From the IMG/VR virus record IMGVR_UViG_3300027582_000004: a DNA stretch of 58,680 bases; one strand, 5' to 3'. Positions 2,657 through 39,493 of the stretch are shown here, in pieces (position 1 is the first letter of the stretch; every line of letters starts with the position of its first letter). The notes below the pieces were generated by a model. The model was not told the DNA's origin. It ran no database searches and worked only from the letters and a program-made list of their open reading frames with translations. The position numbers were made by a program, and so were the translations under genes. This DNA is from an uncultured virus (IMG/VR IMGVR_UViG_3300027582_000004) (taxonomy: Duplodnaviria > Heunggongvirae > Uroviricota > Caudoviricetes).

Positions 2657-3025
2657 ATGAAAATTGCACTAACAGCAGCAGCCCTAGTATTGGCTGCATC
2701 TACAGCATCTGCTGGAGACCTAAACATTGGTGGCCAAACTATTTCAGCCGGCGGTGAATTTGATATGAACTATACAACTGGTACCGAACTGTGGGCTTTG
2801 GATTTTACTCCTAAGGCAGGTCTTAACGCCTTCGGTGTAGATTTCTCAGTAGATACAACATTTGATGTTCTATCTTTGAATGATGCATCTAAAGACGCAT
2901 TTACTGGTCTTGACTTTGTAGCTGGTTATACACTAGGTGGCGGTCTTCGTACTTACACTGAAGTTAGCACAAACTCAGACCTAGAATTTGGTGATGTGAC
3001 TATGGGCGCAACATTTAACTTCTAA
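2657..3025 (+). CDS. small exported porin-like/outer-membrane beta protein
   Basis: SD AAGGA, signal peptide MKIALTAAALVLAASTASA, alternating beta pattern, C-terminal ...MGATFNF (terminal Phe typical of OM barrels). Confidence 0.7.
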   Translation: MKIALTAAALVLAASTASAGDLNIGGQTISAGGEFDMNYTTGTELWALDFTPKAGLNAFGVDFSVDTTFDVLSLNDASKDAFTGLDFVAGYTLGGGLRTYTEVSTNSDLEFGDVTMGATFNF

Positions 3026-3062: not shown

Positions 3063-3091
3063 GAGGAGCCATGGTTAGCTCCTCTTTTTTT
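3063..3091 (+). terminator. Rho-independent terminator
   Basis: gaggagc-catggtta-gctcctc followed by a T run. Confidence 0.8.
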
Positions 3092-3093
3092 AT

Positions 3094-3101
3094 TATAAAT
3101 A
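3094..3101 (+). promoter_or_regulatory. T4-type late promoter for the enzyme cluster
   Basis: TATAAATA about 20 nt upstream of ATG 3121, with SD GGAGAGG. Confidence 0.75.
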
Positions 3102-3120
3102 GGGATAGGAGAGGTGTATT

Positions 3121-3759
3121 ATGATTCTTTTTATTTCTGTCGTACTAGGGCTTTTGTGGTCACAAGTTATATCACACTTTGGTGCGTCAATACTATTACA
3201 TAGACATTATTGCCATAAACAATTTGAGGTACCTAAATGGTTTGAAGCCCTAGGTCTTTCAATGTTAATGGTCGCTTGTATTAGAACACCTATTGGTTGG
3301 ATTGCTTCTCATAGAATGCATCATAAACATTCTGATAGTGAAAAAGATCCACATTCTTGGAAGCATGTAGGATACTGGAAAGTTTTATTTACGACTTGGA
3401 ATATAAGAAAAATATCTCCAAAATATTCTCGTGACTTGTTTAAGAACCCTATGTTGGTATTTTGTCACCACCACTGGTTAAAAATTCTTATCATTACAAA
3501 TATAGTATCATTTATAATAAGCCCATACTTTTGGCTTGCTTTCTGTGCAATACCATTTGTATTTGCAAAAGTAGGATTTGGTTTATTAAATACTGTTGGT
3601 CATAATGAAGAAGGTGGTAGTGATGTCGCATGGCTAAATCTTTTTATTGCAGGTGAAGGTTATCATAGACAACATCATCTTAATTGGAAACAAGTCAGAT
3701 TGCATAAGTGGGATACAGCAGGTTGGATTGCTGAAAAATTATTTGTTAAAGGAAAGTAG
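3121..3759 (+). CDS. membrane fatty acid (acyl-lipid, delta-9 type) desaturase
   Basis: His boxes HRHYCH, HRMHH, EGYHRQHH; hydrophobic segments. Confidence 0.9.
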   Translation: MILFISVVLGLLWSQVISHFGASILLHRHYCHKQFEVPKWFEALGLSMLMVACIRTPIGWIASHRMHHKHSDSEKDPHSWKHVGYWKVLFTTWNIRKISPKYSRDLFKNPMLVFCHHHWLKILIITNIVSFIISPYFWLAFCAIPFVFAKVGFGLLNTVGHNEEGGSDVAWLNLFIAGEGYHRQHHLNWKQVRLHKWDTAGWIAEKLFVKGK

Positions 3760-4362
3760 ATGAAGAAAACTCAATTACCATCCATAATGAAACTAAATGT
3801 TAATATAGATTTAGATTTACTTAGAGATAATTGTAACACCCTTGCTGAAAAGTTTGTTGATGTAAGAACAGCAAATCCAGGGCTTTGTATGAATCATGAA
3901 GACCTTGTAAAAGATGTTTACGATAACTTCGAACAGATCAATCTTACAACACCATCAGAGATACTACCTCACACAACATCTATTAAGGAACGCTTGAGAC
4001 GCAGAGAAGAACATTTATATAATGTAGCAACCGAGGATTATACTGGTAGTTATATTGAAAAGATAGTTACACAGTGTAAAGCACCAGCATCTCGTATTCG
4101 TATTACTAAACTTGCACCAGGTAAAACTATTCCATTCCATGTGGACTATGATGTATCCTATGCGGTACGTTGTATTGTACCCATCTATGGTGATAATAAC
4201 ACTGTTAATCTGTTTAGACGAGACAATAAGGTTGAGGCATATAACCTTAAGTGTGGAACTGCCTATTTTTTAAACATCGGCTATCCCCATGCAGTAGTTA
4301 ACATGAGCGACAAACCACGAATTGCTTTAATGTTTAGTTTGGATGGTACAGATGACTTGTGA
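3760..4362 (+). CDS. Asp/Asn beta-hydroxylase-like Fe(II)/2OG oxygenase
   Basis: RIRITKLAPGKTIPFHVD...PHAVVNMSDKPRIAL (HxD...H, R). Confidence 0.8.
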   Translation: MKKTQLPSIMKLNVNIDLDLLRDNCNTLAEKFVDVRTANPGLCMNHEDLVKDVYDNFEQINLTTPSEILPHTTSIKERLRRREEHLYNVATEDYTGSYIEKIVTQCKAPASRIRITKLAPGKTIPFHVDYDVSYAVRCIVPIYGDNNTVNLFRRDNKVEAYNLKCGTAYFLNIGYPHAVVNMSDKPRIALMFSLDGTDDL

Positions 4363-5140
4363 TAGTAAACAGTATTATAACAAGTCACACCTTTGGCCTA
4401 TTGCACGTGAAGTACAAATAAAGGGTCACAAGATATTCTACGATCAAGAGTTTACTGAACAATCTTACATTGATTATATGAAAGGCTTTGGAGAACTTGA
4501 ACGACATGAGTTGTTTATGAATTCAAAGGAAGTGCCAGAACTATTTTATGTTACTGATAAACGAGATGAGTCTGGACAGAAAATTGGTATGTTCGGTGGT
4601 GGCGAATTAGGCTGGCACTCTAATGGTAATAGCAGGCACAAAATAGATAAGATATTAATCAGCCTTTATTGTGTAGAAGGTGATCCTAATACTACATTAT
4701 CTATATGTAATACCTCAGATCCTTTCTATGACTTGTCTGAAGAGGATCAGGAATACTTTAAGAATATAGTGATTAGGCTTAAATTTAAAAATAATACAAT
4801 GTATGAGTTAGATGATAACGATCCAGAACTTGAGTTTATGAGTAAGAACAAAGGTTCTATTCGACCGCTAGTCGGTAGACATCCTCATACAGATAAGTAT
4901 TATTTTTATTTTCCCTACCATTTTATTTGTAGAGCATGGCATGGGAAAACTCGCATAGATCATAATGAGCTTATTGAAAGATTAAAACCCATTATCTTTC
5001 AGAGCAAATATCAGACACATCATATCTTCCAAAAAGGTGATATGCTTCTAATGGATCAATTGACTTCTCTGCACAGACGAACACCTGTGATGGGAGACCG
5101 TATGTTATGGAGAGCTGCAGGTGACTATTCGAAAATCTGA
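4343..5140 (+). CDS. TauD/TfdA-family dioxygenase with HxN motif
   Basis: WHSNG, PLVGRHP, GDMLLMDQLTSLHRR, RMLWR. Confidence 0.8.
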   Translation: MVQMTCDSKQYYNKSHLWPIAREVQIKGHKIFYDQEFTEQSYIDYMKGFGELERHELFMNSKEVPELFYVTDKRDESGQKIGMFGGGELGWHSNGNSRHKIDKILISLYCVEGDPNTTLSICNTSDPFYDLSEEDQEYFKNIVIRLKFKNNTMYELDDNDPELEFMSKNKGSIRPLVGRHPHTDKYYFYFPYHFICRAWHGKTRIDHNELIERLKPIIFQSKYQTHHIFQKGDMLLMDQLTSLHRRTPVMGDRMLWRAAGDYSKI

Positions 5141-6029
5141 ATTAAGAAACTTTCCATATGTAAATGTACCTAGGTTTAAGTCTGTAGAAATATTACTGTT
5201 GGCTCAGACAGCGGCAGATACATATTTTAGCAGAGGTTCTGGGCAAGCAACAAAAGAACTAGATCACGTTGAGGCTACACATAGGCATTGGGTAAGCTCT
5301 ATGATTGATCTATCAGATTTTCCATATTGTTATTATACTCACGGTGTTACTGATGCCATACATCATTGGGAAATGACAGATAAAAGACCATGGCAGAAAT
5401 TATGTTATGGCGAATATGAATATAGAGATATAATAGGTTCTAAAGGATCCGTTACTTGTGATGTGCCAGGGCAGTACATGGATAAAGAAACTCACAGAGC
5501 TGCACTACCTGGTGTAGTTGATCCTAATAAGCCTTTATATATCTCAACACCTTCTGCGGCAGATGGTAATATATTTAACGCTCCTGTTGATAGTTGGAAA
5601 AACTCACCACCAGTTATATTAGATTGTACTTATGTATCATCCACTGCTATTAAAACAATAGAAGTACCTAAGACAACTGAGCAAGTGTTCTTTTCTTTCT
5701 CTAAAGGTTTTGGTCTTATTGGTAGTAGATTAGGATTAGTCTATACTAAAGAACCACACCCTACTCTACATAGATTAAAAGAATATGAGAACTGGAATTA
5801 TAGTGGTGTAAGAACGATGCAGCTTCTAATGAATAACTTTGCTGTAGATTCCATGCATACAAAATATAAAGATAAGCAACTTGCCATTTGTAAAGAATAC
5901 GATTTTACACCTTCTGATTGCTTTTACCTTGCAACTACACATGATAGATACTATACAAGACGCAGACGAATGCGTTGGAATGATTCTGCTAGAATATGCT
6001 TAACACCTTTATTTGAGGATTACTTATGA
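5121..6029 (+). CDS. PLP-dependent enzyme, aminotransferase class I/II-like
   Basis: VILDCTY and FSFSKGFGLIGSRLG (Schiff-base Lys motif). Confidence 0.75.
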   Translation: MTIRKSELRNFPYVNVPRFKSVEILLLAQTAADTYFSRGSGQATKELDHVEATHRHWVSSMIDLSDFPYCYYTHGVTDAIHHWEMTDKRPWQKLCYGEYEYRDIIGSKGSVTCDVPGQYMDKETHRAALPGVVDPNKPLYISTPSAADGNIFNAPVDSWKNSPPVILDCTYVSSTAIKTIEVPKTTEQVFFSFSKGFGLIGSRLGLVYTKEPHPTLHRLKEYENWNYSGVRTMQLLMNNFAVDSMHTKYKDKQLAICKEYDFTPSDCFYLATTHDRYYTRRRRMRWNDSARICLTPLFEDYL

Positions 6030-7492
6030 CTAAACAATTGATGGATTATACACAGGTAGAGCTTGAGCAATTAACTCAAAAGATTTTAGAGAATGGTCAT
6101 GCGGTTTTACATGATCAAGATTTAACAAGACAACAACTTGTAGAAACTTGTAGTCGTTTTGGAGAAATTGAAGAATTGGATTATTTTATGAATCCAAAGG
6201 ATAGCCCTCAGATAAGTATTGTGTCAGGTAAGGTTGTCGATGGTAAAGCATTAGGCATGTTTGGACCTACTGAGCTTGAATGGCATGCCAATGGTACTGG
6301 TAGATATAACTTTGATGAAATTTGTGTAGGATTATATTGCGTAGAAGAATGTATTGATACAGTACTGTCGTTGGTAGATCAGTGTAGAGCGTTTGAAGAA
6401 CTACCAGAGAAAGAAAAAGAGTATTATCGAGCTATTGATATTCATCTTGATAATTCTGGACCACGTGCCAGAATATGGAGAAATGATGGAGAGTATTCAA
6501 AAGCATATAAAAACCAAGGTGAACAAAATTTTAGAATTGGTCAAGAACACTACAAAGAAAAGTTGGATCGTAGACCTTTAGTTGCAAAGCATCCAGTGTC
6601 TGGTCGTGAATACTTTTATCCTATGTTTATTTACTTAACAAAAGCATGGCATAATGGTGTAGAGATAGAGGACTTTGAACACTTCTATGAAATTTTAAAT
6701 AGTAAAATTACCAGATCAAAATATATGAGCCACCATGTGTTTAGAAAAGGCGATCTACTCTTTATGGATCAGCTCACTACAAGTCATAGAAGGTCTGCTG
6801 TTAAGAATAAAGACAGACAACTATGGAGAACAGCATTTGATTATAAGAAAACATCAAAGCAGATACCATGGCCAGAGATTAAAACAAAAATAGAGAATGG
6901 TCAGAAAGTGCCTCTGAAGGAAGATTATGAATTTAGTGATATGGCTTATCTTGATTCACCAGAAGCATATGAGCTATTTGAAACTCAAGCAAATATTATT
7001 ATAGAAAAACAGTGTAAAGGTATTGTTGATGTTGGCTGTAGACATGGACCAGTATTAGATATATTACACTCAAAGGGCTATACTGATTTTGAGTATATGG
7101 GATTTGATACTTCTAAAGAGCCTATTGATATAGCAACAGAAAAGTGGAAAGATCATAGTAATATAGAATTTAGATGTGAGAGTTGGAATGATCCAGACTG
7201 TTTCTTTGTTGACTTTGATGTAGATCAAGTGATATGGAGCGGTGTATTACTATACAGACCAGATGATCACTTTGAGTTCTTTGATAAGATTACAAATAAA
7301 TTATACTCAAGCCCTAATGCTATCATACAAGAACCTATGCCATGGCAAAGACACTGGAAAGCTGGTCTTATTCTAAACACTATTGCAGATAGTATGGAAG
7401 AATATAAAGATGCATATAAAGAATTTAAAGAATATAAACTCGACCTTGATATATTTGCTGGTCGCAGATTAGTTGCGGATGTTACATTATGA
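6026..7492 (+). CDS. TauD-family dioxygenase fused to a class I SAM methyltransferase
   Basis: N-terminal WHANG...GDLLFMDQLTTSHRR...RQLWR; C-terminal IVDVGCRHG, YMGFD, WSGVLLY. Confidence 0.8.
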   Translation: MTKQLMDYTQVELEQLTQKILENGHAVLHDQDLTRQQLVETCSRFGEIEELDYFMNPKDSPQISIVSGKVVDGKALGMFGPTELEWHANGTGRYNFDEICVGLYCVEECIDTVLSLVDQCRAFEELPEKEKEYYRAIDIHLDNSGPRARIWRNDGEYSKAYKNQGEQNFRIGQEHYKEKLDRRPLVAKHPVSGREYFYPMFIYLTKAWHNGVEIEDFEHFYEILNSKITRSKYMSHHVFRKGDLLFMDQLTTSHRRSAVKNKDRQLWRTAFDYKKTSKQIPWPEIKTKIENGQKVPLKEDYEFSDMAYLDSPEAYELFETQANIIIEKQCKGIVDVGCRHGPVLDILHSKGYTDFEYMGFDTSKEPIDIATEKWKDHSNIEFRCESWNDPDCFFVDFDVDQVIWSGVLLYRPDDHFEFFDKITNKLYSSPNAIIQEPMPWQRHWKAGLILNTIADSMEEYKDAYKEFKEYKLDLDIFAGRRLVADVTL

Positions 7493-8073
7493 TATTAGCA
7501 CTCAGTACCTCACAAGCATCTAACAGTCTCAACTACAGAGGGCTAAAACTACTCAGCTGTGATTTTGATAGAATAGATTGCTTGGCTGACTATGATATAC
7601 CTGTAGTAAATGTTAATGGTATGGACGCAGATATACCTAAAGATGTTGCTGCTTTATTTCTTATGATGCATCAGTTTGATAAGTTTGTGTTTGCAATACC
7701 AGAGTTTACTGGAATGATGAGTTCAAGTACAAAGAACCTATTAGACTGGGCTGTTGTAATATCAAATATGAATTTAGATCATGGTAAAGGATACCCTTGG
7801 ACTGATAAACACGTCATACTTCTCACCTTTACTCCGAGTGGAAAAGAAGGTGGTGGCAGACATATGGAACAGACTAAAGATATATTTAAAAAACTTGGTG
7901 CAAATGTTGTATATACAGATGTATCTACATATGGTTGGCAGCATGTTATACCAGATAACCAAGAACACTTTACTGAGATGTCTGATAAGATAAACAACTA
8001 TCTACTATATAAAGCAGATAATAAAGAGTATTTTAAAAACAAATATAATGATTGGAATGAAAAATGGGATTAG
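7489..8073 (+). CDS. NAD(P)H-dependent FMN reductase (flavodoxin fold)
   Basis: FAIPEFTGMMSSSTKNLLDW, TPSGKEGG. Confidence 0.8.
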   Translation: MILALSTSQASNSLNYRGLKLLSCDFDRIDCLADYDIPVVNVNGMDADIPKDVAALFLMMHQFDKFVFAIPEFTGMMSSSTKNLLDWAVVISNMNLDHGKGYPWTDKHVILLTFTPSGKEGGGRHMEQTKDIFKKLGANVVYTDVSTYGWQHVIPDNQEHFTEMSDKINNYLLYKADNKEYFKNKYNDWNEKWD

Positions 8074-8468
8074 AAACTAAAGGTTTGTACATACTTAAAG
8101 ATGATGATTATGTACCTTATAATTTACCAATGGGTAAAGTGATTTTATGTGGTGTGCCTGGAGCATTTACACCAGGCTGCACTAAAAGACATCTGCCAGG
8201 ATTTGCAAAGAATTTAGACAAGTTAGATGCTAAGGTTGTGTTTGTTGCGGTTAATGATCCGAGTGTCATGCATGCATGGAATGTATTATATGGTCATCCT
8301 CACATTGATGCAGTCGCAGATCCATTAGCTGTATTCAGTAAATATATGGGTAAGGATGTTGACTTTGGTGATTATATGGGTATTAGATGTAAACGATATG
8401 CTATGCTTATAGAGGATGGTGTATTTGTAAAAGAATATGCAGATCCGTTTATTGAAGGTGTATTATGA
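8064..8468 (+). CDS. peroxiredoxin (Prx5/type II redoxin)
   Basis: VPGAFTPGCTKRHLPG, VAVNDPSVMHAW, RCKRYAMLIEDG. Confidence 0.9.
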   Translation: MGLETKGLYILKDDDYVPYNLPMGKVILCGVPGAFTPGCTKRHLPGFAKNLDKLDAKVVFVAVNDPSVMHAWNVLYGHPHIDAVADPLAVFSKYMGKDVDFGDYMGIRCKRYAMLIEDGVFVKEYADPFIEGVL

Positions 8469-9130
8469 TACCAGGCATTGCAGAGTATGTAGATGTTGAT
8501 CCTCAGCATGAATTATTACTTGACCTGTATGAAAAAGTAAAAGGTGTAAGGGCTGGGGAGGACTTTAATGTTTTTGGTAAGACACCATTTGAGAGTTATT
8601 CGTTAGAATATAATATGACTGGTAAGGATACTGGTTATGAAGAAATATATGACCCTATCTTATCTCAGCACAGAATGGTACATCCACATTATCAGTTTAG
8701 ATCAACTGGATTTAATACTGCTGATAGTACAGAGAAAGATGTATTCCCTCATACCGACATAGATCAGAATAGAGAACATAGTCAAGGGTATAATATCATA
8801 TATCCTGTACTTGGAGCAAGTCGTTTAGATTATTATGAAACACTAGAAGACGAAATATGCCTACCTGAAAAGAACGCTCAAGGATATTATTACTATCATG
8901 AGTTTAAAGCACAGAGTCAGATGGGTCAAGGCACACCAGAGTTTGAAAAGTTTTTAGCTGATCGTAAGATTGGTGAGATCATTATTGATAAGCCTTGTCT
9001 TATTGATACAGAAGTAATGCATAGAGTAATTATTACAGAGGCACCCAGATGTGCATTTGTGACAAGATGGAATAATATACCACCTATTGACTTCCATTCG
9101 TTTAAAGAAAGAGTTGAGTCTATATTATGA
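8465..9130 (+). CDS. putative Fe(II)/2OG oxygenase (DSBH fold)
   Basis: PHTD...LIDTEVMHRV...PRCAF. Confidence 0.55.
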   Translation: MIPGIAEYVDVDPQHELLLDLYEKVKGVRAGEDFNVFGKTPFESYSLEYNMTGKDTGYEEIYDPILSQHRMVHPHYQFRSTGFNTADSTEKDVFPHTDIDQNREHSQGYNIIYPVLGASRLDYYETLEDEICLPEKNAQGYYYYHEFKAQSQMGQGTPEFEKFLADRKIGEIIIDKPCLIDTEVMHRVIITEAPRCAFVTRWNNIPPIDFHSFKERVESIL

Positions 9131-9609
9131 ACTGGCAAACATCATATACTATAAATGATGATTTAAAAGAAAAAATATCTAATATATGCAATAAAAAATT
9201 AGAAGGTGAGCCAGACGATCAAGAAGTATGGCATAGAACATCTCATATAACTTTAAATTCCTACACGTGGTCCTTTTATAAAGCAGAGGGGCTTAACGAA
9301 GTTAAGGAACAACTTAAAATAATTACAGGCTTAGATACAATATATGAGCATGGATATACATGTATATGGAGATACAACCAAGAGTTTCCAAAGTGTCCAA
9401 TACATATAGATCATGAAGCTCAACATAAAGGATCTCTTTGTATATCTTTGTCTGGGTACCATAATATATTTTTACATGATATAAAAACAAAAGAAAAACT
9501 AGAAAAGATTACTGTGAAAGATAATAGTATTATGTTTATAAACAACTCAAAGTATTATCATAGCGTAGAAGGTAACGGCGATCTGTGGATACTAGGAGTA
9601 AAGAAGTGA
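9127..9609 (+). CDS. putative cupin/2OG oxygenase
   Basis: PIHID...FINNSKYYHSVEG. Confidence 0.5.
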   Translation: MNWQTSYTINDDLKEKISNICNKKLEGEPDDQEVWHRTSHITLNSYTWSFYKAEGLNEVKEQLKIITGLDTIYEHGYTCIWRYNQEFPKCPIHIDHEAQHKGSLCISLSGYHNIFLHDIKTKEKLEKITVKDNSIMFINNSKYYHSVEGNGDLWILGVKK

Positions 9610-10160
9610 GAATAGTTCCGTATATAAAAGATTCAAAGCCTACTTATGAGGAACCAGATCAATGCCATGATGCCTTTCTGCAACTACAGGTAGAGAAAGA
9701 CACTGATAGATTATCAGACAACTATTCTTATAAAAATTTAAACTTAGATAGAATGGTAATGTTTAACTTTGTATTTGATGGAAACAATCCAGTTTTATGT
9801 TCAGGTTGCGAGACCATATATCCTGGTGTTGTAAGAGTTATGTCTAGGTATTACCATTATAAAAATTATAGAACAGATGGTACGTCTATGTTTGAGAAGG
9901 TGGATAACTTTAAAGAGCTAAATTACTGTGTCGACAACCTTGATGCTCCTCTTATAATTTGGACACGTGAATTCAGTAAAGGTTTCTTTACTAAACTCAA
10001 AAGAGCACGCCCTGATATATTTGAAGATTGGCAAGTGTATCCAGATAAACTACAGATAGGAAGCCCACCTTTAAAGAAAGCAAATAATCTACAGTATGTA
10101 TTTTATAAAGGCGATATTAACTATCTACGCAACCCACAATATGAAGACGGTACTCCATAG
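9606..10160 (+). CDS. hypothetical protein, possibly GNAT-like fold
   Basis: GTGA overlap with the upstream stop; VVRVMSRYY and LIIWTRE weakly suggest an acyltransferase fold. Confidence 0.4.
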   Translation: MRIVPYIKDSKPTYEEPDQCHDAFLQLQVEKDTDRLSDNYSYKNLNLDRMVMFNFVFDGNNPVLCSGCETIYPGVVRVMSRYYHYKNYRTDGTSMFEKVDNFKELNYCVDNLDAPLIIWTREFSKGFFTKLKRARPDIFEDWQVYPDKLQIGSPPLKKANNLQYVFYKGDINYLRNPQYEDGTP

Positions 10161-10554
10161 AAGCATTTACAAATGTATGTTTCTTTCTGGTGTCGACTAG
10201 ATAGTGAGAACCATCTGCCGGATACCTGCTCACAACATCATCTATAACAAAAAAGTTATTCTCGTTAGTAAGTAATGGTATATGCATTCTTTGAGTAGGG
10301 TCACGGTGATATGTGTAGCATGACTTAGGTGCTAACTTCATAAGCCTCGATCTATACATTCCTAATGAATCTAATACAGAATTGGTATATGGCAGATCAT
10401 ATGCATATACATTAAAATCTTGTTCTGTATTAACAAGTTTAGTCAGACGACCTTCCCCACCAACATTATCTTTTGTAACCTGTAAGGACAATTGTTCTTC
10501 ATACTCAGGTAAGCCCTGTAGTTCTAATAGTATATGTTCTATGTCTATGCGCAT
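10117..10554 (-). CDS. Asp/Asn beta-hydroxylase-like Fe(II)/2OG oxygenase
   Basis: RSRLMKLAPKSCYTYHRD...RMHIPL...HTFVN...RLHIV; likely start MRIDIEH. Confidence 0.75.
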   Translation of the reverse strand: MRIDIEHILLELQGLPEYEEQLSLQVTKDNVGGEGRLTKLVNTEQDFNVYAYDLPYTNSVLDSLGMYRSRLMKLAPKSCYTYHRDPTQRMHIPLLTNENNFFVIDDVVSRYPADGSHYLVDTRKKHTFVNASMEYRLHIVGCVDS

Positions 10555-10967
10555 ACTGTTAATTCTTTCACATTGTATTCTTGAATAAGAACCCATTCGA
10601 TAACATCTATCACATAATCTAAAGGCATCTTTTCAACATCTTTATGTGCTGATCTTTCAGTATCAAAGTAACCAAAGTTCAGACACGTTGTTTTCTTACC
10701 AGCTATGAACAACTGGTTATTAGCTTCTCGCAAGGCTCTTTTCTCTACAGCATATTTGTGTAGATATGTAAAATCACTTGCGTGAGATCCTATGTTAATG
10801 ATACGTTTATTAAGAGCTGCTGCTTTGTATAGCATATCTACTTGTTCAAAGCCATCATGTTTACAATTAATGAATATATCGCATTCTTCTAATGTAGATA
10901 CAGTATCATATTTTTGTTTTAATGCTTCACCTAGACCTCGTCTAGTACCAGTAATATAAAATTTCAT
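10545..10967 (-). CDS. minimal short-chain dehydrogenase/reductase
   Basis: ITGTRRGLG, IINIGS, YAVEK (YxxxK). Confidence 0.75.
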   Translation of the reverse strand: MKFYITGTRRGLGEALKQKYDTVSTLEECDIFINCKHDGFEQVDMLYKAAALNKRIINIGSHASDFTYLHKYAVEKRALREANNQLFIAGKKTTCLNFGYFDTERSAHKDVEKMPLDYVIDVIEWVLIQEYNVKELTVCA

Positions 10968-11676: not shown

Positions 11677-11705
11677 TTTACATCTGTAATTGGATGTGTT
11701 ATACT
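11677..11705 (+). promoter_or_regulatory. early promoter
   Basis: TTTACA-tctgtaattggatgtgt-TATACT; spacer identical to that at 48013. Confidence 0.85.
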
Positions 11706-11741
11706 AATTTTAGAAACAAAAAATGGAATGGAGATTATATA

Positions 11742-12716
11742 ATGGCACATGAAGTAGAAATGATTGATGGTGTGGCTCAAATGGCTTTTGTTGGTGATAC
11801 ACCTTGGCATGGTCTTGGTACTCAAGTTCATAATGACTTGAGCCCTTTGCAGATGATGCAGAAAGCTGGTCTTGATTGGAACGTCAAGAAAGTAGATGCT
11901 TTTATCAATGTAGGTGATGAGCAAATCAAAACAGGACAACAAGCACTTGTTCGTTCTTCTGATAACTCAATTTTAACAAATGTAGGCAAAGGTTGGAATC
12001 CTGTTCAGAATGAGCAAGCATTTGAATTCTTTGCAGAATATGTGGCAGCTGGAGATATGGAAATGCATACAGCTGGTTCACTCAAGGGTGGTCAGCAAGT
12101 CTGGGCTCTTGCAAAGATAAAGGAATCTTTTGATGTATTTGGCGATGATACTGTTGAGTCTTATTTACTTTTTTCTAATCCCCATCAGTATGGCAAATCT
12201 ATTAATGTTAGGTTTACTCCTGTACGGGTTGTATGTAATAACACCCTCACAATGAGCCTAGAAAGCAAAGCTGATCGTGCTGTTGCTGTAGGTCACCGAA
12301 CAGAATTTAATCCTGATATGGTTAAAGAGCAACTAGGCATTGCACATGAGAAGTTTGCCAAGTATAAAGAAATGGCTCAGTTCCTTGGATCACGTAAGTT
12401 TAAAGTTGAAGATTTGTTGAACTACTATAACAATGTGTTCCCTCATACTCACACACCTAATAAGGTTTCTGAAGTAAAAGCTAAAGAGGAAATGTCTCGT
12501 ACAGCTCAGTTATGTTTAGATAACTTAGAAACACAACCTGGAGCACAGTATGGTGAAGGCTCATGGTGGCAGGCATTTAATTCTGTTACTTATGTTACAG
12601 ATCACTTACAGGGTCGCAATGCAGAGAATAGATTGCACAGCCAGTGGTTTGGACAGAACCAGCTTCGTAAAGTAAAAGCAGCAGAGCAAGCAGTCAAGTT
12701 TGCTCTGGCTGCCTAA
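11742..12716 (+). CDS. DUF932-family phage/plasmid protein
   Basis: PWHGLG, AGLDWNV, HTAGSLKGG, TPVRVVCNNTL; SD GGAG before MAHEVE. Confidence 0.85.
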   Translation: MAHEVEMIDGVAQMAFVGDTPWHGLGTQVHNDLSPLQMMQKAGLDWNVKKVDAFINVGDEQIKTGQQALVRSSDNSILTNVGKGWNPVQNEQAFEFFAEYVAAGDMEMHTAGSLKGGQQVWALAKIKESFDVFGDDTVESYLLFSNPHQYGKSINVRFTPVRVVCNNTLTMSLESKADRAVAVGHRTEFNPDMVKEQLGIAHEKFAKYKEMAQFLGSRKFKVEDLLNYYNNVFPHTHTPNKVSEVKAKEEMSRTAQLCLDNLETQPGAQYGEGSWWQAFNSVTYVTDHLQGRNAENRLHSQWFGQNQLRKVKAAEQAVKFALAA

Positions 12717-14218: not shown

Positions 14219-15445
14219 ATGATAACATTTAAAGAAACACTTACTGAGCAAAAGAATACTCACATGACACACATCGAGGATAAGGTTCTCTATGGTGGTG
14301 TTAAGGGTACTCGTGAAGCTATCTTCGCCCTAAGAGATATGCGAGATATGCTAGGTGGTAAACACGCTGGTAGTGTATCAGTAAAATGGGATGGAGCACC
14401 TGCTATCTTTGCTGGTACAGATCCCCGTGATGGTAAATTCTTTGTTGCTAAGAAAGGTATCTTTAATAAGAACCCTAAGGTATACAAAACTAAAGCTGAT
14501 GTAGATGAAGACACAAGTGGAGACCTAGCTGTTAAGCTCAAAGAGGCTCTTAGATATTTGCCTGCATTAGGTATTAAAGGTATTGTACAGGGCGACTTTT
14601 TGTTTAGCTCTGGAGATGTAAAGAAGGAAAAAATTAATCGTGAAGCGTATCTCACTTTCCATCCTAATACTATTGTTTATGCTGTCCCTGTGGCAAGTGA
14701 ATCAGCAAAAGCCATTAAAGCAGCCAAAATTGGTGTCGTATGGCATACCACATATACAGGTAACGACTTTGCCTCCCTTAAAGCTAGTTACGGAGTCAAC
14801 GTGTCTGCTTTCAAGTCTACAAAGAATGTCTGGTCACAAGACGCCATGCTAAGAGATATGACAAAGTTTACTATGTCAAAGAAGGAAACAGATGAAGTTA
14901 ATAAGTACCTCAGTGAGTGCGGTAAGCTATTCAACCAAATCTCCAGTAGCACACTCAAAGAACTTGAATCAAAGCAAGACCTTGCACAACTCATCGAACA
15001 GTTCAACAATAAGTATGTTAGAAAAGGACAGATTGTCAAGGATACATCACGGCATACTGCCATGCTTATACGTTGGATCAAACTTAGGTTTGGTAAAGAA
15101 ATTAACAAAAGAAAATCGGAGAGAGGTAAAACCACTCAACGAGATAAGTTAAGTGCGACACTTGAATTCTTTTCAGATAAGAATAAAGCAAATCTAATAA
15201 AAATGTTTGAATTACAAAAGTTAATGGTACTTGCTAAATTAAAACTTATAAATAGACTTAACCAGTTGAGTATGACTAAGGCTTTTGTTAAAACTAAAAA
15301 CGGATTTAAAACCGTTGGTGCAGAAGGCTATGTTGCAATCGACAAACTTGGTGGTGATGCAGTGAAAATCGTTGATCGTATGGAGTTTTCATACAACAAC
15401 TTTTCACCCAATGTTGTTAAAGGATGGGAAAAGGCAGGTAAATAA
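14219..15445 (+). CDS. DUF6267-like protein, putative ATP-dependent ligase/nucleotidyltransferase fold
   Basis: MITFKETLTE, HMTHIED, SVKWDG (KxDG), QGDFLF, EGYV, AVKIVDR. Confidence 0.6.
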   Translation: MITFKETLTEQKNTHMTHIEDKVLYGGVKGTREAIFALRDMRDMLGGKHAGSVSVKWDGAPAIFAGTDPRDGKFFVAKKGIFNKNPKVYKTKADVDEDTSGDLAVKLKEALRYLPALGIKGIVQGDFLFSSGDVKKEKINREAYLTFHPNTIVYAVPVASESAKAIKAAKIGVVWHTTYTGNDFASLKASYGVNVSAFKSTKNVWSQDAMLRDMTKFTMSKKETDEVNKYLSECGKLFNQISSSTLKELESKQDLAQLIEQFNNKYVRKGQIVKDTSRHTAMLIRWIKLRFGKEINKRKSERGKTTQRDKLSATLEFFSDKNKANLIKMFELQKLMVLAKLKLINRLNQLSMTKAFVKTKNGFKTVGAEGYVAIDKLGGDAVKIVDRMEFSYNNFSPNVVKGWEKAGK

Positions 15446-26001: not shown

Positions 26002-26161
26002 GATATTCTATGCAGTCAAAGGTCACTTGATACCATTAACATACACATCTAATGATATAGAAAGTATGTACAATAGTTATTTTAAAAGATTATGGAATAA
26101 CCATGAGAGGCTAGTTAATTGCCAATTAGACTTTGAAGCCCTATGGAAGAATGCAATTTAA
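25973..26161 (+). CDS. hypothetical protein
   Basis: SD AAGGAG, TTG start. Confidence 0.55.
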   Translation: MTNGTKRQNEIFYAVKGHLIPLTYTSNDIESMYNSYFKRLWNNHERLVNCQLDFEALWKNAI

Positions 26162-26868
26162 AAATTTGTTATCTGTACATGCTTTTCAAATGTTGGGAAG
26201 GACCATAAGTCATCAAGATTTCCATTGCGGCGACTTTCTATTAGTATATCTCTGTTTAAGACATCTGGATGTGTTTTTCTGTCCATATTAGGATTTGGAT
26301 AACCGATCCCAACAATACACTTTGCAAATGTGTTTTTAATACCTAATACATCACCTTCTCTAAATGCAGAACAACAGCCTGTTCTATATCCTAATAAATT
26401 GGCTGTAAGTAATAATTGACCTATAGCTATTCCTGTACCAATATCCATTATTCTATTTTTAACTATATGAGTATACAGATCCTCTTTATGGGTCTCATCA
26501 TCAACAATCATATGAGTTCTTGCTCTGGCTTTAGACTGATCCCAATCGTCACAGAAAGCTATTATTAAATTTGCATTTAGCTGAGAATTAGTTACACAGT
26601 ATTCATCTGGTGTATCTCCATTACTACTTATAGGAATACTATCATCATACACAGCAAAGTATTTTGTTCTGCTATACACTTCCTCTATTTTAGACTGGTT
26701 AGAAGACCAATATATTTTGTAATTAGTTTCATTCTGTTTCGTAGGTGCATATTGAATAGAGGAGAGCATCAAATCGATGTCTTCTTGTGGGATATTTACA
26801 TCACTTTTCCAGTTTCTTTGACACGGATTAGTGTTTTTTATAGCTGAGAAAAGCTCATCTTTATCCAT
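26158..26868 (-). CDS. nitroreductase-family flavoprotein
   Basis: CQRNW, YAPTKQN, MDIGTGIAIGQLLLTANLLGYRTGCC, VGIGYP. Confidence 0.8.
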   Translation of the reverse strand: MDKDELFSAIKNTNPCQRNWKSDVNIPQEDIDLMLSSIQYAPTKQNETNYKIYWSSNQSKIEEVYSRTKYFAVYDDSIPISSNGDTPDEYCVTNSQLNANLIIAFCDDWDQSKARARTHMIVDDETHKEDLYTHIVKNRIMDIGTGIAIGQLLLTANLLGYRTGCCSAFREGDVLGIKNTFAKCIVGIGYPNPNMDRKTHPDVLNRDILIESRRNGNLDDLWSFPTFEKHVQITNF

Positions 26869-32278: not shown

Positions 32279-33067
32279 ATGAAAAAAATGATATATCAAG
32301 TCTACACTGGCAAGTCCTCTAGGCTATATGATTGGTGTACTGATAGTGTAGAAGCATATGCAAAAAGAATTGGTGCTGACTACATACAGCTTAACGTACC
32401 TGTTCTTAAAATTAAACCAGATCCATTTGTTACTAATAGAAGTAAAGAGTCGTACGAGAAGTATGGTGGCTTTTTACCTATCTATGAGAAAGAGAATGCA
32501 TTTAAATACTTTGATAGATATGATCAGATTGCTATTATTGATGCAGACATCTATATCAGAGACACAGCTCCCAACATTTTTAAAGAACTAAAACCAGAAA
32601 CAGATTTTGCTGGTGTATATGAACGTGAGATGCCAGTCACGCCACAGTATGGTGCTAAGATCCGTAACTACTCTCACATGCAATATGGTAAGTTTGAGAA
32701 GCACTTTGACTTTAATCATGCATATGGTGCTCCGTTTATGAATATGGGTATGATGGTTATGAATAATTCCTTTAGTAAATATCTTGGTGGATTATCACCA
32801 AAAGACTGGCTTATGCAACCGGTCTTTAAAGATTTTATTGATGGCTTAGGAGCATGGAAATGGTCAACAGATCAGACATTACTTAATTGTTTTATACGCT
32901 CTAAGAATATGAATGTACAGCATCTAGGTTATGAGTGGAATGGTTTATACACAGCTATCCCAGATGATAAGATAAAGGACTGCCACTTTGTCCATTTCTT
33001 CTTAAAAGATAAACTACCTGCTGCCGGTGAAAATGTAGAGGAACTAAAACGTATATGCCAAATTTAA
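32279..33067 (+). CDS. GT-A glycosyltransferase
   Basis: IIDADIY, NMGMMV, TDQTLLN, HFVHF. Confidence 0.75.
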   Translation: MKKMIYQVYTGKSSRLYDWCTDSVEAYAKRIGADYIQLNVPVLKIKPDPFVTNRSKESYEKYGGFLPIYEKENAFKYFDRYDQIAIIDADIYIRDTAPNIFKELKPETDFAGVYEREMPVTPQYGAKIRNYSHMQYGKFEKHFDFNHAYGAPFMNMGMMVMNNSFSKYLGGLSPKDWLMQPVFKDFIDGLGAWKWSTDQTLLNCFIRSKNMNVQHLGYEWNGLYTAIPDDKIKDCHFVHFFLKDKLPAAGENVEELKRICQI

Positions 33068-33738
33068 TCTTACAACATTATGATGGTATCTTAGGTGAAC
33101 TAGAAAAGGCATCTGTGGCTAACATAAAAGCATATGCTAAAATGGTTGGTGCTGATTATAGACTTATTGTAGGAAGACCATTTAGAAAATGGTTAGAACC
33201 AGCTCCTCAGAAATGTTATATGATTAATGAAGAATATGACGAATACGATGATGTTCTTATGGTAGACATTGATATGTTTACACCAGTTGGTATGGAGATT
33301 AATGTATTTGATCAAGTTGGTGTTGGCATGTATAATCCTGTACAACAAATGCTGCACCGCAAAATAGTTAATATGTATCCAGATATTGCCAGTGCTGACT
33401 CTCCTTATTGGGGTGGTGCGATATACAAGATGGGTAAAGAGTTAAGAAAGACATTAAGATCAGCTGGCGAATCTTTTACTAATGATGACTGGCTCCAAAA
33501 CTTTACTCACTATCACTTTGCAGATGAGGGTATCTTTCATGCTTATGCTACAAGAGCAATGATACCTTTTACTAAAGATATGATTATTGATCAGAAGTGG
33601 TGTTACTGTAGTTACTTACCTAATGTTGAAGATGCTGGATTTATACACATGAGAACTAAGGTTACACCTCAAGGACCTAAAAGAGAAAAAATAGAAAACT
33701 ATCGTGATCTGGTAAAAAGAGGTATTATCAATGGCTAA
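33055..33738 (+). CDS. GT-A glycosyltransferase
   Basis: GADY, VLMVDIDMF, DEG. Confidence 0.65.
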   Translation: MPNLILQHYDGILGELEKASVANIKAYAKMVGADYRLIVGRPFRKWLEPAPQKCYMINEEYDEYDDVLMVDIDMFTPVGMEINVFDQVGVGMYNPVQQMLHRKIVNMYPDIASADSPYWGGAIYKMGKELRKTLRSAGESFTNDDWLQNFTHYHFADEGIFHAYATRAMIPFTKDMIIDQKWCYCSYLPNVEDAGFIHMRTKVTPQGPKREKIENYRDLVKRGIING

Positions 33739-34528
33739 TCTAATTTATCAAGTATGGGCAGGAGAACTAAGACCAGCTTGTAAACATAGTTCTAAGCTAA
33801 TGAAAGAATACGCTGATCGAATTGGTGCTGATTATAGATTAGATATTGATCCTAATATAGCATCAAATTCGTGTGATGTACCTATGTACTTTGAGTGGCT
33901 TAATCCTATGTTGGATAAAAGATTTTTAGAATATGACAAAGTGCTAGTTGTTGATTTAGATGTATTTCCTACACCAGATTGCCGTAATATATTTGAAGAG
34001 GAGATTGCTGATGTTGGTATTTGTACAGAACCATTCCAAGGTAAGTATAGAGCAAAATCTGTAGTTGGTGGTTCTATCTGTTCTGCTAATGATGAAATAT
34101 GGTCAAAGCATTGTAAAAGACTTTATAATGTAGATTTACCTAGAGATGATGAAGGGTATCTAAAAGTATATAATGCCGGTATGGTGCTATTCACTAAAGA
34201 AGGTTTACTCAAGTGTATAGAAAAGTTTGTAGAGTTTCAACAATATATTGATGCTATGAGAAGTTGTAAGCTAGGTAGATTTTATACTGTAGATCAGAAT
34301 TATTTCCATGCAATGATGGTAGCACATTTAGATTATACTGAAATGGATAATGATTGGAATTGTTATATACATTATGTAAGAGGACCTTTAGGTATTACTA
34401 ATCCTATACACGATGGTAGAGGTAGTGATCCACAGCTTGTACACATACAGTTAAGTGGCGCTGATTACTTTGAAGATGATATGATAGATAGAATAACTAA
34501 TAAACCACAAGGACAATGGAATTTATGA
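33731..34528 (+). CDS. GT-A glycosyltransferase
   Basis: VVDLDVF, YNAGMV, DQNY, WN. Confidence 0.75.
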   Translation: MANLIYQVWAGELRPACKHSSKLMKEYADRIGADYRLDIDPNIASNSCDVPMYFEWLNPMLDKRFLEYDKVLVVDLDVFPTPDCRNIFEEEIADVGICTEPFQGKYRAKSVVGGSICSANDEIWSKHCKRLYNVDLPRDDEGYLKVYNAGMVLFTKEGLLKCIEKFVEFQQYIDAMRSCKLGRFYTVDQNYFHAMMVAHLDYTEMDNDWNCYIHYVRGPLGITNPIHDGRGSDPQLVHIQLSGADYFEDDMIDRITNKPQGQWNL

Positions 34529-35094
34529 TTAATGCTGAATTAGGGCATGTGACAACCTTAAAGGAATTTTATAATGAAATCCGGTCACAACAAGAAGCCG
34601 CTCACGGAGATGATTATTGTGCTCAACATGATGCTTTAGTAAATCTTTTTAATAAAGAAGGTTGTACTTCATACAAAGAAATCGGTACACACCAAGGTGG
34701 TACAGCAGCTGCAGTTATGCAAACTGGTGTAGAATATATGGAACTGGTTGATATTGATATGGGTAAGTATCGTAAGTTCCTAGCTCCTATTGCTTCTAAG
34801 TATTGTAGAGATAATGATATTGAGTTAGTTGTAAAAGAAACAGATTCACTAGGGCTTGGTGCAATTGGTAAAGTGTGTGATGTAATGCTTATCGACTCTG
34901 TACATAAGCGACCCCATATGGAAAAAGAATTAGAAATGCATGCTCAATTTGCAAAAAGATATATTGTATTCCATGATACTAGTGCAGTACCTGCTCTATA
35001 TGCAGGTATCGTTGAATTTTGTAGACTAAATCCTTTTGAGATTATTGAACGTGGTACTGAGAATGTAGGTTATACAGTTATTAAGAGAAAGTAA
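34516..35094 (+). CDS. class I SAM methyltransferase (Methyltransf_24-like)
   Basis: EIGTHQGGT, LIDSVH, IVFHD; start may be 34525. Confidence 0.75.
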   Translation: MEFMINAELGHVTTLKEFYNEIRSQQEAAHGDDYCAQHDALVNLFNKEGCTSYKEIGTHQGGTAAAVMQTGVEYMELVDIDMGKYRKFLAPIASKYCRDNDIELVVKETDSLGLGAIGKVCDVMLIDSVHKRPHMEKELEMHAQFAKRYIVFHDTSAVPALYAGIVEFCRLNPFEIIERGTENVGYTVIKRK

Positions 35095-38959: not shown

Positions 38960-39036
38960 GGATACGTAGCTCAGCAGGATAGAGCAAGTGCCTTCTAAGC
39001 ACTAGGTCAGAGGTTCGAATCCTCTCGTATTCGCCA
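38960..39036 (+). tRNA. tRNA-Arg(UCU)
   Basis: Cloverleaf: GGATACG/CGTATTC acceptor, agtgc-CTTCTAA-gcact anticodon arm, GGTTCGAATCC, encoded CCA. Confidence 0.95.

Positions 39037-39416: not shown

Positions 39417-39493
<77 letters not shown>

Follow-up and report, generated by a model that had tools for sequence, protein, structure and literature searches.

We report here on a 58,680-nucleotide (nt) stretch of DNA from an uncultured virus of the Caudoviricetes (IMG/VR record IMGVR_UViG_3300027582_000004), referred to below, at its full length, as the window, and on a cluster of twelve enzyme-like genes, g1 to g12, near its start. The cluster comprises 12 open reading frames (ORFs) at 3121-10967, ten of them on the + strand (3121-10160) and two, convergent to the ten, on the - strand; an earlier note made from the letters of this DNA had described ten tightly coupled genes and a convergent pair, and the ORF list confirms this layout. 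Neighbouring genes from g1 to g10 abut or share up to 25 nt; the 3′ end of g10 is overlapped by 44 nt of g11, which in turn has 52 nt in common with g12. Because the cluster has no gaps, no ORF of at least 50 amino acids (aa) lies in gaps within it. The enzyme labels that the note had given to these genes are all backed by family, profile, motif or fold evidence, presented gene by gene below. In the Pfam scan no family scored above its cut-off for g4, g8, g9, g10 and g12, and NCBIfam returned generic names only for the twelve proteins, with no family-level assignment.

The first gene, g1 (3121..3759, +), encodes a membrane di-iron desaturase of 212 aa of the stearoyl-CoA/Delta9 desaturase (SCD) type, matching the Pfam family FA_desaturase (PF00487) with an E-value of 1.8e-11 and 44.7 bits against a cut-off of 29.7. 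When a profile of 23 g1 orthologues was compared with the PDB, the only relatives found were the SCD1 entries 4ZYO (1.8e-6) and 4YMK (8.1e-6), human and mouse, with a profile alignment spanning all histidine boxes. The di-iron site of SCD1 is made of nine histidines and a water molecule held by an asparagine. Residues H27, H32, H64, H67, H68, H161, H182, H185, H186 and N157 are invariant across the 23 g1 sequences, and the boxes HxxxxH, HxxHH and HxxHH, together with the extra His and the Asn, align to SCD1. The protein is shorter than SCD1, and it is the sole member of the cluster with hydrophobic 19-mers, located at residues 1-21 and 119-157. Its complete stearoyl-CoA-desaturase metal site lends some support to a lipid direction for the pathway, one of three candidate outputs that the earlier note had put forward (remodelling of amino-lipids or membranes, modification of virion components, or a small molecule), and we regard g1 as the strongest single pointer to a long-acyl-chain substrate.

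Six further members are mononuclear-iron oxygenases, of which two are AspH-type, two TauD-type and two further HxD...H proteins. The TauD-type proteins are g3 (4343..5140, +), a TauD/TfdA-family oxygenase of 265 aa with H-S-N in place of H-x-D, and the N-terminal half of g5 (6026..7492, +), in which a TauD domain with H-A-N (residues 9-269; hereafter g5a) is joined to a class-I S-adenosylmethionine (SAM) methyltransferase domain (residues 333-423; g5b), both halves being assigned with Pfam. Against the 27-bit cut-off of TauD (PF02668), g3 scored 65.8 bits (7.3e-18) and g5 81.2 bits (1.5e-22). The closest PDB relative of g3 was ScoE (3.2e-6), an enzyme that acts on a (carboxymethyl)amino fatty acid; HMMER aligned the H-S-N of g3 to the H-A-D of ScoE. 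The NCBIfam ScoE model matched g5 (4.4e-5) and did not match g3.

In both proteins Asn occupies the carboxylate position, and neither has the 2-His-1-carboxylate triad. The substitution is a conserved one. H92, N94 (within W-H-S-N), H244, R253 and R257 of g3 are invariant in 22 sequences, and in g5a N89 (within W-H-A-N) is invariant in 12 of 12 orthologues, as are R264 and R268, the distal His being kept. Across the related loci described below, 51 of 55 TauD-like ORFs have WH[SAC]N at the first WH, and two have WHSD. The TauD homologue of locus L062 has WHSN, and the cellular TauD-like ORFs of loci L063 and L064 have WHAN at the second WH. The two invariant Arg residues that follow the distal His in g3 (R253, R257) and g5a (R264, R268) are candidates for binding 2-oxoglutarate (2OG). 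We know of no characterised TauD-fold enzyme with a His-x-Asn triad. A word search of the available text of a review of atypical non-haem iron sites found no word starting with Asn or asparagine (PMC4019311), and such sites may exist elsewhere. The His-x-Asn TauD proteins may represent a catalytic variant that is new to this well-studied family of enzymes.

The AspH-type proteins are g2 (3760..4362, +; 200 aa), a soluble Fe/2OG oxygenase of the AspH (cupin) family, and g11 (10117..10596, -; 159 aa), a second member of that family that is convergent to g10. Both matched Asp_Arg_Hydrox (PF05118; cut-off 22.6 bits), g2 with 29.5 bits (7.9e-7) and g11 with 31.4 bits (2.1e-7), and the two families are related to one another (hhalign, 98.2%). 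A total of 1047 homologues of g2 were found at E <= 0.001, the best 120 of which are all at least 78% identical to it. Neither protein matched an NCBIfam family at E <= 0.05, in a library whose content of LpxO and OlsC models was not verified. LpxO is membrane-anchored; no hydrophobic 19-mer is present in g2 or g11, and the anchor expected of an LpxO is absent from both. The comparisons place the two proteins in the AspH family without tying them to LpxO or OlsC in particular.

Of the two HxD...H proteins, g8 (8465..9130, +; 221 aa) is predicted to adopt the double-stranded beta-helix (DSBH) fold of Fe/2OG oxygenases (model pLDDT 88.5) and has an invariant H-T-D...H motif; H96, T97, D98, H186, R195 and R201 are invariant in 14 sequences. 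Its Foldseek matches in the PDB were all 2OG oxygenases, with TM-scores of 0.35-0.49, and included proline 3-hydroxylase (3.3e-4), PHD2, FIH, JMJD5, JMJD7, ALKBH2/6, KanJ and AspH; a sequence-profile search of the PDB with g8 gave nothing meaningful (best E 0.49). The other, g9 (9127..9609, +; 160 aa), is recognised by its motif alone. The two histidines H93 and H145 never vary among 17 sequences, at least 90% of which also have D95, and g9 is probably a cupin-type iron oxygenase. It often occurs in tandem paralogues, four of them in L062, and hhalign found no profile link between the g9 family and the other families of the cluster. A natural variant without this gene was seen in a contig (depth 3.9) of the RNA-library run X16, which joins position 9120 to 9606 with six other letters in between; as the contig precisely lacks g9, it fits g9 being an optional member.

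The fourth gene, g4 (5121..6029, +; GTG start), encodes a short fold-type-I pyridoxal phosphate (PLP) enzyme of 302 aa, HisC/CobD-like by motif and profile. Enzymes of this fold type are recognised by a Schiff-base Lys in an SxSK motif and an Asp that pairs with the pyridine nitrogen. In 26 sequences g4 presents the motif FSFSKGFGxxGxRxG, with S194-K195 in at least 90%, D168 invariant and N150 conserved. A profile of the same 26 sequences matched histidinol-phosphate aminotransferase and threonine-phosphate decarboxylase (CobD) in the PDB (7e-4), and the match crosses the lysine motif, which aligned to FSKAF of 1H1C. Against Aminotran_1_2 (PF00155; cut-off 19.7 bits) g4 itself reached 13.1 bits and its homologue in the bacterial locus L074 20.2 bits. 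Its nearest clusters in the ESM Atlas are viral only, with PF00155 on 20% of their members. The methyltransferase half of g5 scored just over the cut-off of Methyltransf_25 (28 vs 27 bits; 3.8e-6), and the best PDB matches of the corresponding profile were juvenile-hormone-acid methyltransferase (7.4e-5) followed by phosphoethanolamine N-methyltransferase.

Two members appear to provide redox functions. An NAD(P)H-dependent, flavodoxin-like FMN reductase of 194 aa is encoded by g6 (7489..8073, +), with 58.6 bits against a cut-off of 24 for FMN_red (PF03358; 7.1e-16), and a Prx5-type peroxiredoxin of 134 aa by g7 (8064..8468, +), with 60.1 against 26.6 bits for Redoxin (PF08534; 2.7e-16) and a match to PHROG 2281, 'peroxyredoxin antioxidant' (5.8e-18). 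The context of the peroxidatic Cys in g7, PxxxTxxC, is present as PGAFTPGC.

The last gene of the + strand run, g10 (9585..10160, +; 191 aa, GTG start), encodes a predicted acyl-CoA-type transferase, its model (pLDDT 83.2) having the GNAT fold of acyl-CoA N-acyltransferases. Its best Foldseek matches were all GNATs, 26 of them at E <= 0.001 (best 5.5e-5; TM 0.40-0.53), and a VIA-align comparison with 48,161 chains gave a best Z of 9.7, the best 50 entries ranging from 9.7 to 7.7; within 1 Z unit, acetyltransferases, an acyl-CoA N-acyltransferase and CoA-dependent acyl-homoserine-lactone synthases were tied. No Pfam match and no PDB sequence-profile match to g10 were found (best PDB E 0.19). 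The convergent g12 (10545..10967, -; 140 aa) resembles a minimal short-chain dehydrogenase/reductase (SDR). Such enzymes are typified by a TGxxxGxG nucleotide-binding motif and catalytic Ser, Tyr and Lys residues, in a full Rossmann domain of ~250 aa. In 11 sequences of the g12 family, ITGTRRGLG (G7, G11), S61, Y72 and K76 are invariant. The g12 profile weakly matched SDRs of the PDB, first RhlG (0.0018) and then FabG-type reductases; the Pfam scan returned no SDR family even at E <= 10, and NCBIfam gave an SDR model at 0.0017, with 17.8 bits against a cut-off of 249, so g12 has neither a family-profile match above cut-off nor the full length of the domain.

To determine how far these genes are inherited together, IMG/VR was scanned with g1 and g5, which returned 28 and 32 loci, respectively, with one shared. 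Overlapping or near-identical loci were combined, which left 32 viral groups, or 33 with the cultured Pelagibacter phage Mosig EXVC030M (MT647606). Counting the two halves of g5 separately, the families occur in the following numbers of the 33 groups: g4 29, g1 27, methyltransferase 27, g3 25, g2 24, g6 20, g8 19, g7 18, g5a 16, g11 15, g10 14, g12 11 and g9 7. As the loci were fetched with genes of the cluster, g1 and g5 are present by construction and the test rests on the other families; as many contigs end inside the cluster, the counts are lower bounds, and one group (L028) scores 0 only because the end of its contig cuts its g1 match. The earlier note had named beforehand, as one part of the result that would refute its pathway, a failure of the genes to co-occur in other genomes. 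No such failure was seen: within the flanks fetched, at least 5 of the 13 families are found in 29 of the 33 groups and at least 8 in 20, at amino acid identities to the window that range from ~30% to 97% across loci. The redox support that the note had proposed for the pathway likewise travels with the set, FMN reductase and peroxiredoxin being present in 20 and 18 groups.

The families stay together through extensive rearrangement. Their order is g1-g4-g6-g7-g8-g3-methyltransferase-g2 in Mosig, g12-g11-g1-g4-g5a-g6-g7-g8-g3-methyltransferase-g2 in L036, and g4-g2-g3-methyltransferase-g6-g7-g8-g12-g11-g10, with g1 inverted, in L057. Members are also fused in different ways. The TauD-methyltransferase fusion of the window (g5) is split into separate genes in Mosig and most other loci; FMN reductase is fused to methyltransferase in L011:9209-10492 and L017:10981-12264; homologues of g11 and g12 form an AspH-SDR fusion of 334 aa in L033:4003-5007; and in L051 and L057 an unmatched N-terminal domain of ~200 aa, with an H-x-D...H pattern seen by eye, is fused to the methyltransferase, which is a similarly long protein in L007/L059. 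Since the families co-occur though their order is shuffled, and fusions tie them to one another, the gene set behaves as a functional unit. We conclude that marine T4-like (pelagimyophage-type) phages inherit the twelve genes together, as a single enzyme cassette.

We consider it improbable, in light of this conservation, that the cassette is a loose collection of independent auxiliary genes for oxidative stress, membrane fluidity or sulfonate use, gathered in a variable region of the genome. In keeping with such a collection, peroxiredoxin and TauD have PHROG families of their own as stand-alone auxiliary genes, membership of the cassette is variable (g9 in 7, g12 in 11 and g10 in 14 of the 33 groups), single viral Delta9 desaturases act alone as auxiliary genes of cyanophages (PMC5776448), and hypervariable islands are described in pelagimyophage genomes (PMC7029224). 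Set against these points, the core of g1, g4, g3, methyltransferase and g2 is kept together through rearrangements down to ~30% identity, four kinds of fusion join members to one another, and the same combination recurs in bacterial chromosomes (see below). Nor do g4 and g1 occur as stand-alone genes elsewhere among 50,697 GenBank phage records: g4 was found in Mosig only, and g1 in Mosig and in two records of Acinetobacter phages, the latter with 22.7% identity.

Accessory genes found within or next to the cluster in other loci include further AspH-like families, a P4H-like 2OG-FeII_Oxy_3 protein, radical SAM and SPASM/twitch radical SAM enzymes, a nitroreductase and a PP-loop/QueC-like ATPase; for accessory family 8, the ESM Atlas gave a lead to Asp_Arg_Hydrox, present on 27% of members. 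The window itself carries a nitroreductase-family gene at 26158..26868 (-; Pfam Nitroreductase, 1.1e-5), 15 kb from the cassette, which is 33% identical to the accessory nitroreductase family (tblastn, 6e-19). Mosig (as Mosig_00082) and five other groups carry a homologue beside the cassette, and the gene of the window may be a detached accessory member, although whether it belongs to the cassette is uncertain.

Several of these accessory genes bear on the possibility, which we rate as unlikely, that the cassette matures a peptide or protein, be it a peptide made on the ribosome, a protein of the virion or tail fibre or one of the host, with the oxygenases hydroxylating side chains and the methyltransferase and GNAT capping Lys residues or N-termini. 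Aspartyl/asparaginyl beta-hydroxylases, after which PF05118 is named, act on proteins, and the cassette holds two copies of this family; PHD2, FIH, JMJD5 and JMJD7 are among the fold neighbours of g8. SPASM/twitch radical SAM, KedN5-family B12 radical SAM, SET, PP-loop and P4H-like 2OG-FeII_Oxy_3 proteins are found in related loci, the Mosig cluster lies beside tail-fibre genes, an Mtd_N protein is encoded just upstream in L046, and a late-promoter box (see below) would fit virion assembly. Protein maturation, however, leaves the desaturase with its intact SCD site, the PLP enzyme and the FMN reductase without a known role, and the desaturase and the PLP enzyme, present in 27 and 29 of the 33 groups, belong to its most constant members. 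There is furthermore no room for a precursor gene, as g1 to g10 overlap or abut, no conserved family of small ORFs occurs inside the cluster span, and in this window the cluster lies far from the tail genes.

On phage contigs of three groups, a gene for a TonB-dependent receptor (602 aa, Plug and beta-barrel) is accompanied by one for a DUF6580 membrane protein, the pair (L015:2302-4513, -, also in L012 and L013 type loci) being located between AspH-like genes of the cassette. Such a receptor is unusual for a phage and hints at the uptake of a small molecule or cofactor. TauD-type, PLP, methyltransferase, GNAT and small-cupin enzymes recur together in pathways that tailor amino acids, and matches to all of these families are present in the cassette. 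It is conceivable, if not likely in our judgement, that the cassette makes or converts a soluble small molecule derived from an amino acid (a metallophore, osmolyte, signal or antibiotic), with the desaturase acting on a hydrophobic side chain or being peripheral. The presence of the TonB receptor and DUF6580 genes inside the cluster span, the carbamoyltransferase and sugar-type aminotransferase genes that adjoin the cluster in Mosig and L064, and the solubility of every member but g1 would be in line with such a product. No enzyme that forms a scaffold, be it a nonribosomal peptide synthetase (NRPS), NRPS-independent siderophore (NIS) synthetase, ATP-grasp enzyme or polyketide synthase, was found in the window or the 33 viral groups, however, and no exporter was found; transporter genes occur in only 3 groups, and g1 is again among the most constant members.

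The cassette combination also occurs in bacteria of the Bdellovibrionota. When genomes were scanned with the g4 profile, one for each species, five loci were obtained. Two of them, L061 and L065, on contigs of 7 and 8.5 kb in metagenome-assembled genomes (MAGs), were set aside as probably mis-binned phage DNA, their proteins being up to 80% identical to phage proteins. The remaining three (L062, L063, L064) are divergent, at 25-54% identity; L062 has a Phage_pRha gene nearby and may belong to a phage or prophage. L064 lies on a 398-kb contig (G002:C1) of a Pseudobdellovibrionaceae MAG, and a full class-I aminoacyl-tRNA synthetase gene 85 kb away marks this contig as chromosomal; ribosomal protein L2 was not found on the same contig as the bacterial clusters. 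Within 20 kb, L064 encodes an OlsE-like FA_hydroxylase (NF052566, 2.1e-23, far below cut-off), a NodU-like carbamoyltransferase, a PLP enzyme, TauD, a 2OG oxygenase, a desaturase, a KedN5-family B12 radical SAM methyltransferase, a SET domain protein and an SDR. In a wider sample, the PLP marker was present at E <= 1e-10 in 12 of 301 Bdellovibrionota genomes. In one of these twelve, the locus L074, on a 349-kb contig (G154:C34), brings together three TauD proteins, two desaturases, two AspH proteins and a PLP enzyme and, besides a GNAT-SET fusion, also encodes a radical SAM enzyme together with a PP-loop ATPase. No phage genes were found in the 20 kb examined around the clusters on bacterial chromosomes. 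These loci show the cassette combination to be older and wider than one phage lineage.

Two other loci of Bdellovibrionota genomes, L072 (9309-11114, -) and L073 (8218-10347, +), carry a g4-like PLP domain inside proteins of 601 and 709 aa, which have no Pfam match, the g4-like part included; among the genes around them are those for an ABC transporter ATPase and for an OPT oligopeptide transporter.

As regards the timing of expression, the earlier note had placed a late promoter before the cluster. A T4-type late-promoter-like box, TATAAATA, is present at 3094..3101 (+), 19 nt before the g1 ATG at 3121, and is preceded by a terminator-like hairpin and T-run at 3063..3084 (+; 7-bp stem with 5 GC pairs, then TTTTTTTATT), which closes the upstream gene 2657-3025. 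Across the window the motif TATAAATA is found at chance level, 12 times against 8.97 expected, and 21 of 100 shuffled sequences reach 12. Upstream of the desaturase gene, however, the core ATAAATA is placed within 60 nt in 12 of 28 related, non-redundant loci, whereas 1.5% of random 60-nt windows drawn from the same loci contain it; the exact octamer is present within 160 nt upstream in 6 of the 28. Position of the core, rather than its window-wide count, appears to be the informative signal. We take the box as a putative late promoter, from which the cassette is probably switched on.

Elsewhere the window encodes T4-type proteins, namely a gp32-like single-stranded DNA-binding protein, a gp2 DNA end protector, a gp4 head closure protein and, with the gp48 and gp53 families represented, proteins of the baseplate hub, wedge and tube, as well as a gp5-like hub/lysozyme, ribonucleotide reductase, ThyX and PhoH. 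These structural and replication families identify the window as part of a T4-like myophage, from whose type we infer a lytic life style. The G+C content is ~36%; that of Mosig is stated as 30% (PMC7892664).

Upstream signals, gene content and bacterial relatives together bear on whether the cassette might hypermodify phage DNA or nucleotides. Phage clusters for thymidine and cytosine hypermodification employ PLP enzymes, radical SAM enzymes, flavoenzymes, acetyltransferases, TET-type 2OG oxygenases and carbamoyltransferases, radical SAM and carbamoyltransferase genes adjoin the Mosig cluster, and ALKBH-type enzymes are among the fold neighbours of g8. We nonetheless give DNA hypermodification very little credence: the Pfam scans revealed no kinase, DNA glycosylase/transferase, DNA methyltransferase or hydroxymethylase in the cluster, the anchor gene is a membrane desaturase, the phage has an ordinary ThyX, a late-promoter box is a poor fit to a function at the time of replication, and the set is also present in bacterial chromosomes with no phage genes in the 20 kb examined.

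The reading that we favour, tentatively and with a confidence somewhat short of even, is that the cassette carries out, as one oxidative pathway, the late-expressed tailoring of an acyl-chain-bearing amine, which in the infected cell could be a membrane lipid, a lipoamino acid or an intermediate held as an acyl-thioester. Chemically this would amount to functionalising C-H bonds step by step. In the order of steps that we infer, g1 would introduce a double bond or an oxygen function into the acyl chain with electrons from g6, the presumed electron donor, and the soluble iron oxygenases g2, g3, g5a, g8, g9 and g11 would hydroxylate further positions. The SDR g12 could then convert a hydroxyl into a ketone, which the PLP enzyme g4 would turn into an amine, unless g4 acts as a decarboxylase on an amino-acid head; amine, hydroxyl or carboxyl groups would be capped by the GNAT g10 and by the methyltransferase g5b; and g7 would clear peroxide arising from uncoupled turnover. 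An acyl-chain-bearing amine is favoured because weak hints from separate proteins are concordant: the resemblance of g1 to SCD1, of g3 to ScoE, of the methyltransferase to juvenile-hormone-acid and phosphoethanolamine methyltransferases and of g12 to RhlG and FabG, and the OlsE-like neighbour in L064. The Delta9 activity of cyanophage desaturases on C16 chains (PMC5776448) points to an acyl chain as well. Pointers to an amine are the aminotransferase fold of the PLP enzyme, the GNAT and methyltransferase of the phages and the GNAT-SET fusion of L074.

A number of observations weigh against tailoring of an acyl-chain-bearing amine. In and around the cassette, Pfam scans of neighbouring genes revealed neither an acyl carrier protein nor an acyl-CoA ligase, a lipid acyltransferase or a head-group synthase; every member of the cassette but g1 is soluble, and g2 and g11 are without a membrane anchor. 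The substrate hints are weak, at E-values of 1e-6 to 1e-3, and could mirror the content of the PDB. Protein and nucleic-acid hydroxylases are among the fold neighbours of g8, and the SPASM/twitch and B12 radical SAM, SET and PP-loop proteins of related clusters would also fit peptide maturation. As both TauD paralogues are without the usual carboxylate ligand, ordinary hydroxylase chemistry is not to be assumed for them. With regard to expression, 0.22-0.54 of the sampled words of 3094-10967 were matched by each of three metatranscriptome libraries, which come from two studies, and a small share by a fourth; the matches are contigs that cover the cluster and its flanks in patches, and carry-over of DNA is possible.

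Near-identical copies of this interval (at least 0.91 of sampled words) are present in 14 DNA runs, which come from about ten studies of marine and viral metagenomes; the window's own source sample may be among the runs. A bolder form of the acyl-amine proposal, which we hold to be doubtful, is that abundant ocean phages of SAR11-type hosts and some predatory bacteria share a complete and novel pathway, in which acyl chains of the host would be turned, late in infection, into lipids or lipoamino acids of a new class that are oxidised, aminated and either methylated or acylated, by way of a new His-x-Asn TauD subclass with non-standard chemistry. If this were true, the product could reshape the cell envelope or serve as a signal. 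Few viruses of the sea are as numerous as T4-like phages of SAR11-type bacteria. The cassette is common, g2 alone having 1047 relatives in public data. For a streamlined virus in water poor in iron, it is costly to keep seven oxygen-activating iron enzymes and their redox helpers through deep divergence. Should the product be a lipid or a signal, phages would rebuild the envelope chemistry of their hosts well beyond what single desaturase genes achieve. A cultured test system exists in Mosig, grown on Pelagibacter HTCC1062.

The surroundings of the cassette hold several other features. Directly upstream lies a two-piece (permuted) tmRNA gene of alphaproteobacterial type (2235-2628, +), found with ARAGORN, with the tag peptide ANENFAPSGYALAA and Rfam matches to RF04321 (104.6 bits) and RF01849 (94.5 bits); in RNA-library contigs from two runs of one study a variant was seen with 18 other letters in place of 2345-2454. 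Between this gene and the cassette, 2657-3025 (+) encodes a small protein with a signal-peptide-like N-terminus, MKIALTAAALVLAASTASA, a beta-rich body and an end, ...GATFNF, resembling the C-terminus of outer-membrane proteins. It has no Pfam, PHROG or NCBIfam family, its homologues adjoin the cassette in 4 groups, and one metatranscriptome contig lies over the gene with a word depth of 216. Just downstream of the cassette are genes for DUF932 (11694-12716, +; 1e-39), a homologue of which lies near the cassette in several other loci, and DUF6267 (14219-15445, +; 3e-101). Further along, eight tightly packed genes at 32279-37638 (+) include two GT25 glycosyltransferases (1.4e-11 and 1.6e-11) and give weak GT8 and methyltransferase matches, a run that fits the lipopolysaccharide-type glycosyltransferase clusters reported in pelagimyophages (PMC7029224). 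Genes for tRNA-Arg(TCT) (38960-39036, +) and tRNA-Pro(TGG) (39417-39493, +) follow.

Among known systems, the closest to the cassette is that of Mosig, the only isolate with the set, in which it spans Mosig_00072 to Mosig_00081. In the phage comparison, Mosig was the one record of 50,697 to match the cluster, at 70.2% nucleotide identity over 40% of the query, with protein identities of 33-74%. Like the window, Mosig encodes a desaturase, two Asp_Arg_Hydrox proteins, TauD, an 'aminotransferase', a methylase, an FMN reductase, a peroxiredoxin, a g8 homologue and an N-acetyltransferase-like gene. Unlike the window, it has another gene order, an unfused methyltransferase and one TauD paralogue only, and tblastn revealed no g9, g11 or g12; for its 'N-acetyltransferase' family (fam10), hhalign detected no relation to g10 (below 50%). 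The Mosig cluster is flanked on one side by genes for a radical SAM enzyme, a nitroreductase, a sugar aminotransferase and a carbamoyltransferase and on the other by tail fibres.

With respect to published accounts, the available text of the Mosig genome announcement makes no mention of the cluster (PMC7892664). A survey of pelagimyophages reports, in its available text, an aspartyl/asparaginyl beta-hydroxylase in the core and a desaturase in freshwater genomes and nothing more of the cassette, and word searches of two of its supplementary files were negative (PMC7029224). Our literature search found no paper describing the cassette, and subscription journals and supplements may hold more. The description of the pathway as undescribed, made in the earlier note, therefore stands at the level of the pathway and falls for single genes, which are already named in the Mosig GenBank record.

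The cyanophage desaturases (vFAD) of Roitman et al. (2018) are Delta9 desaturases active on C16 chains (PMC5776448). Like g1, they are viral membrane desaturases of marine T4-like phages, a likeness drawn from their description and not from sequence; a word search of the available text of that paper found none of the terms 2OG, dioxygenase, hydroxylase and neighbor (PMC5776448), whereas here the desaturase anchors a set of twelve genes.

The ScoE/Rv0097-type enzymes of isonitrile lipopeptide pathways share with g3 the TauD fold, and ScoE acts on an amino fatty acid. The match is weak, however, ScoE has H-A-D where g3 has H-S-N, and the cassette is without partners of the ScoA-D type.

OlsC and LpxO (both of the AspH family), OlsE and OlsG are tailoring enzymes of ornithine lipids and lipid A. 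Their pathways resemble the cassette in logic alone, in that an AspH-family hydroxylase, a membrane di-iron enzyme and an N-methyltransferase act on an amino-lipid. They differ from it in that the cassette has no synthase of the OlsB, OlsA or OlsF type and g2 and g11 have neither an NCBIfam match nor a membrane segment, and the TauD, PLP, GNAT and SDR members have no counterpart in them.

Finally, the Bdellovibrionota clusters (L064, L074) resemble the phage cassette in uniting a desaturase, a HisC-like PLP enzyme, TauD and AspH or 2OG oxygenases, with TauD H-x-N motifs in L062, L063 and L064, an SDR in L064 and GNAT and methyltransferase functions in L074. In contrast to the phage version, they are larger, only 25-40% identical to it and rich in unknown proteins, with a SET domain instead of the class-I methyltransferase and with a B12 radical SAM C-methyltransferase, a carbamoyltransferase, an FA_hydroxylase and a PP-loop protein added. 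Taken together, enzyme families of these kinds and multi-gene auxiliary clusters of phages are known, whereas the combination, its spread across phages and Bdellovibrionota and the TauD variant are new.

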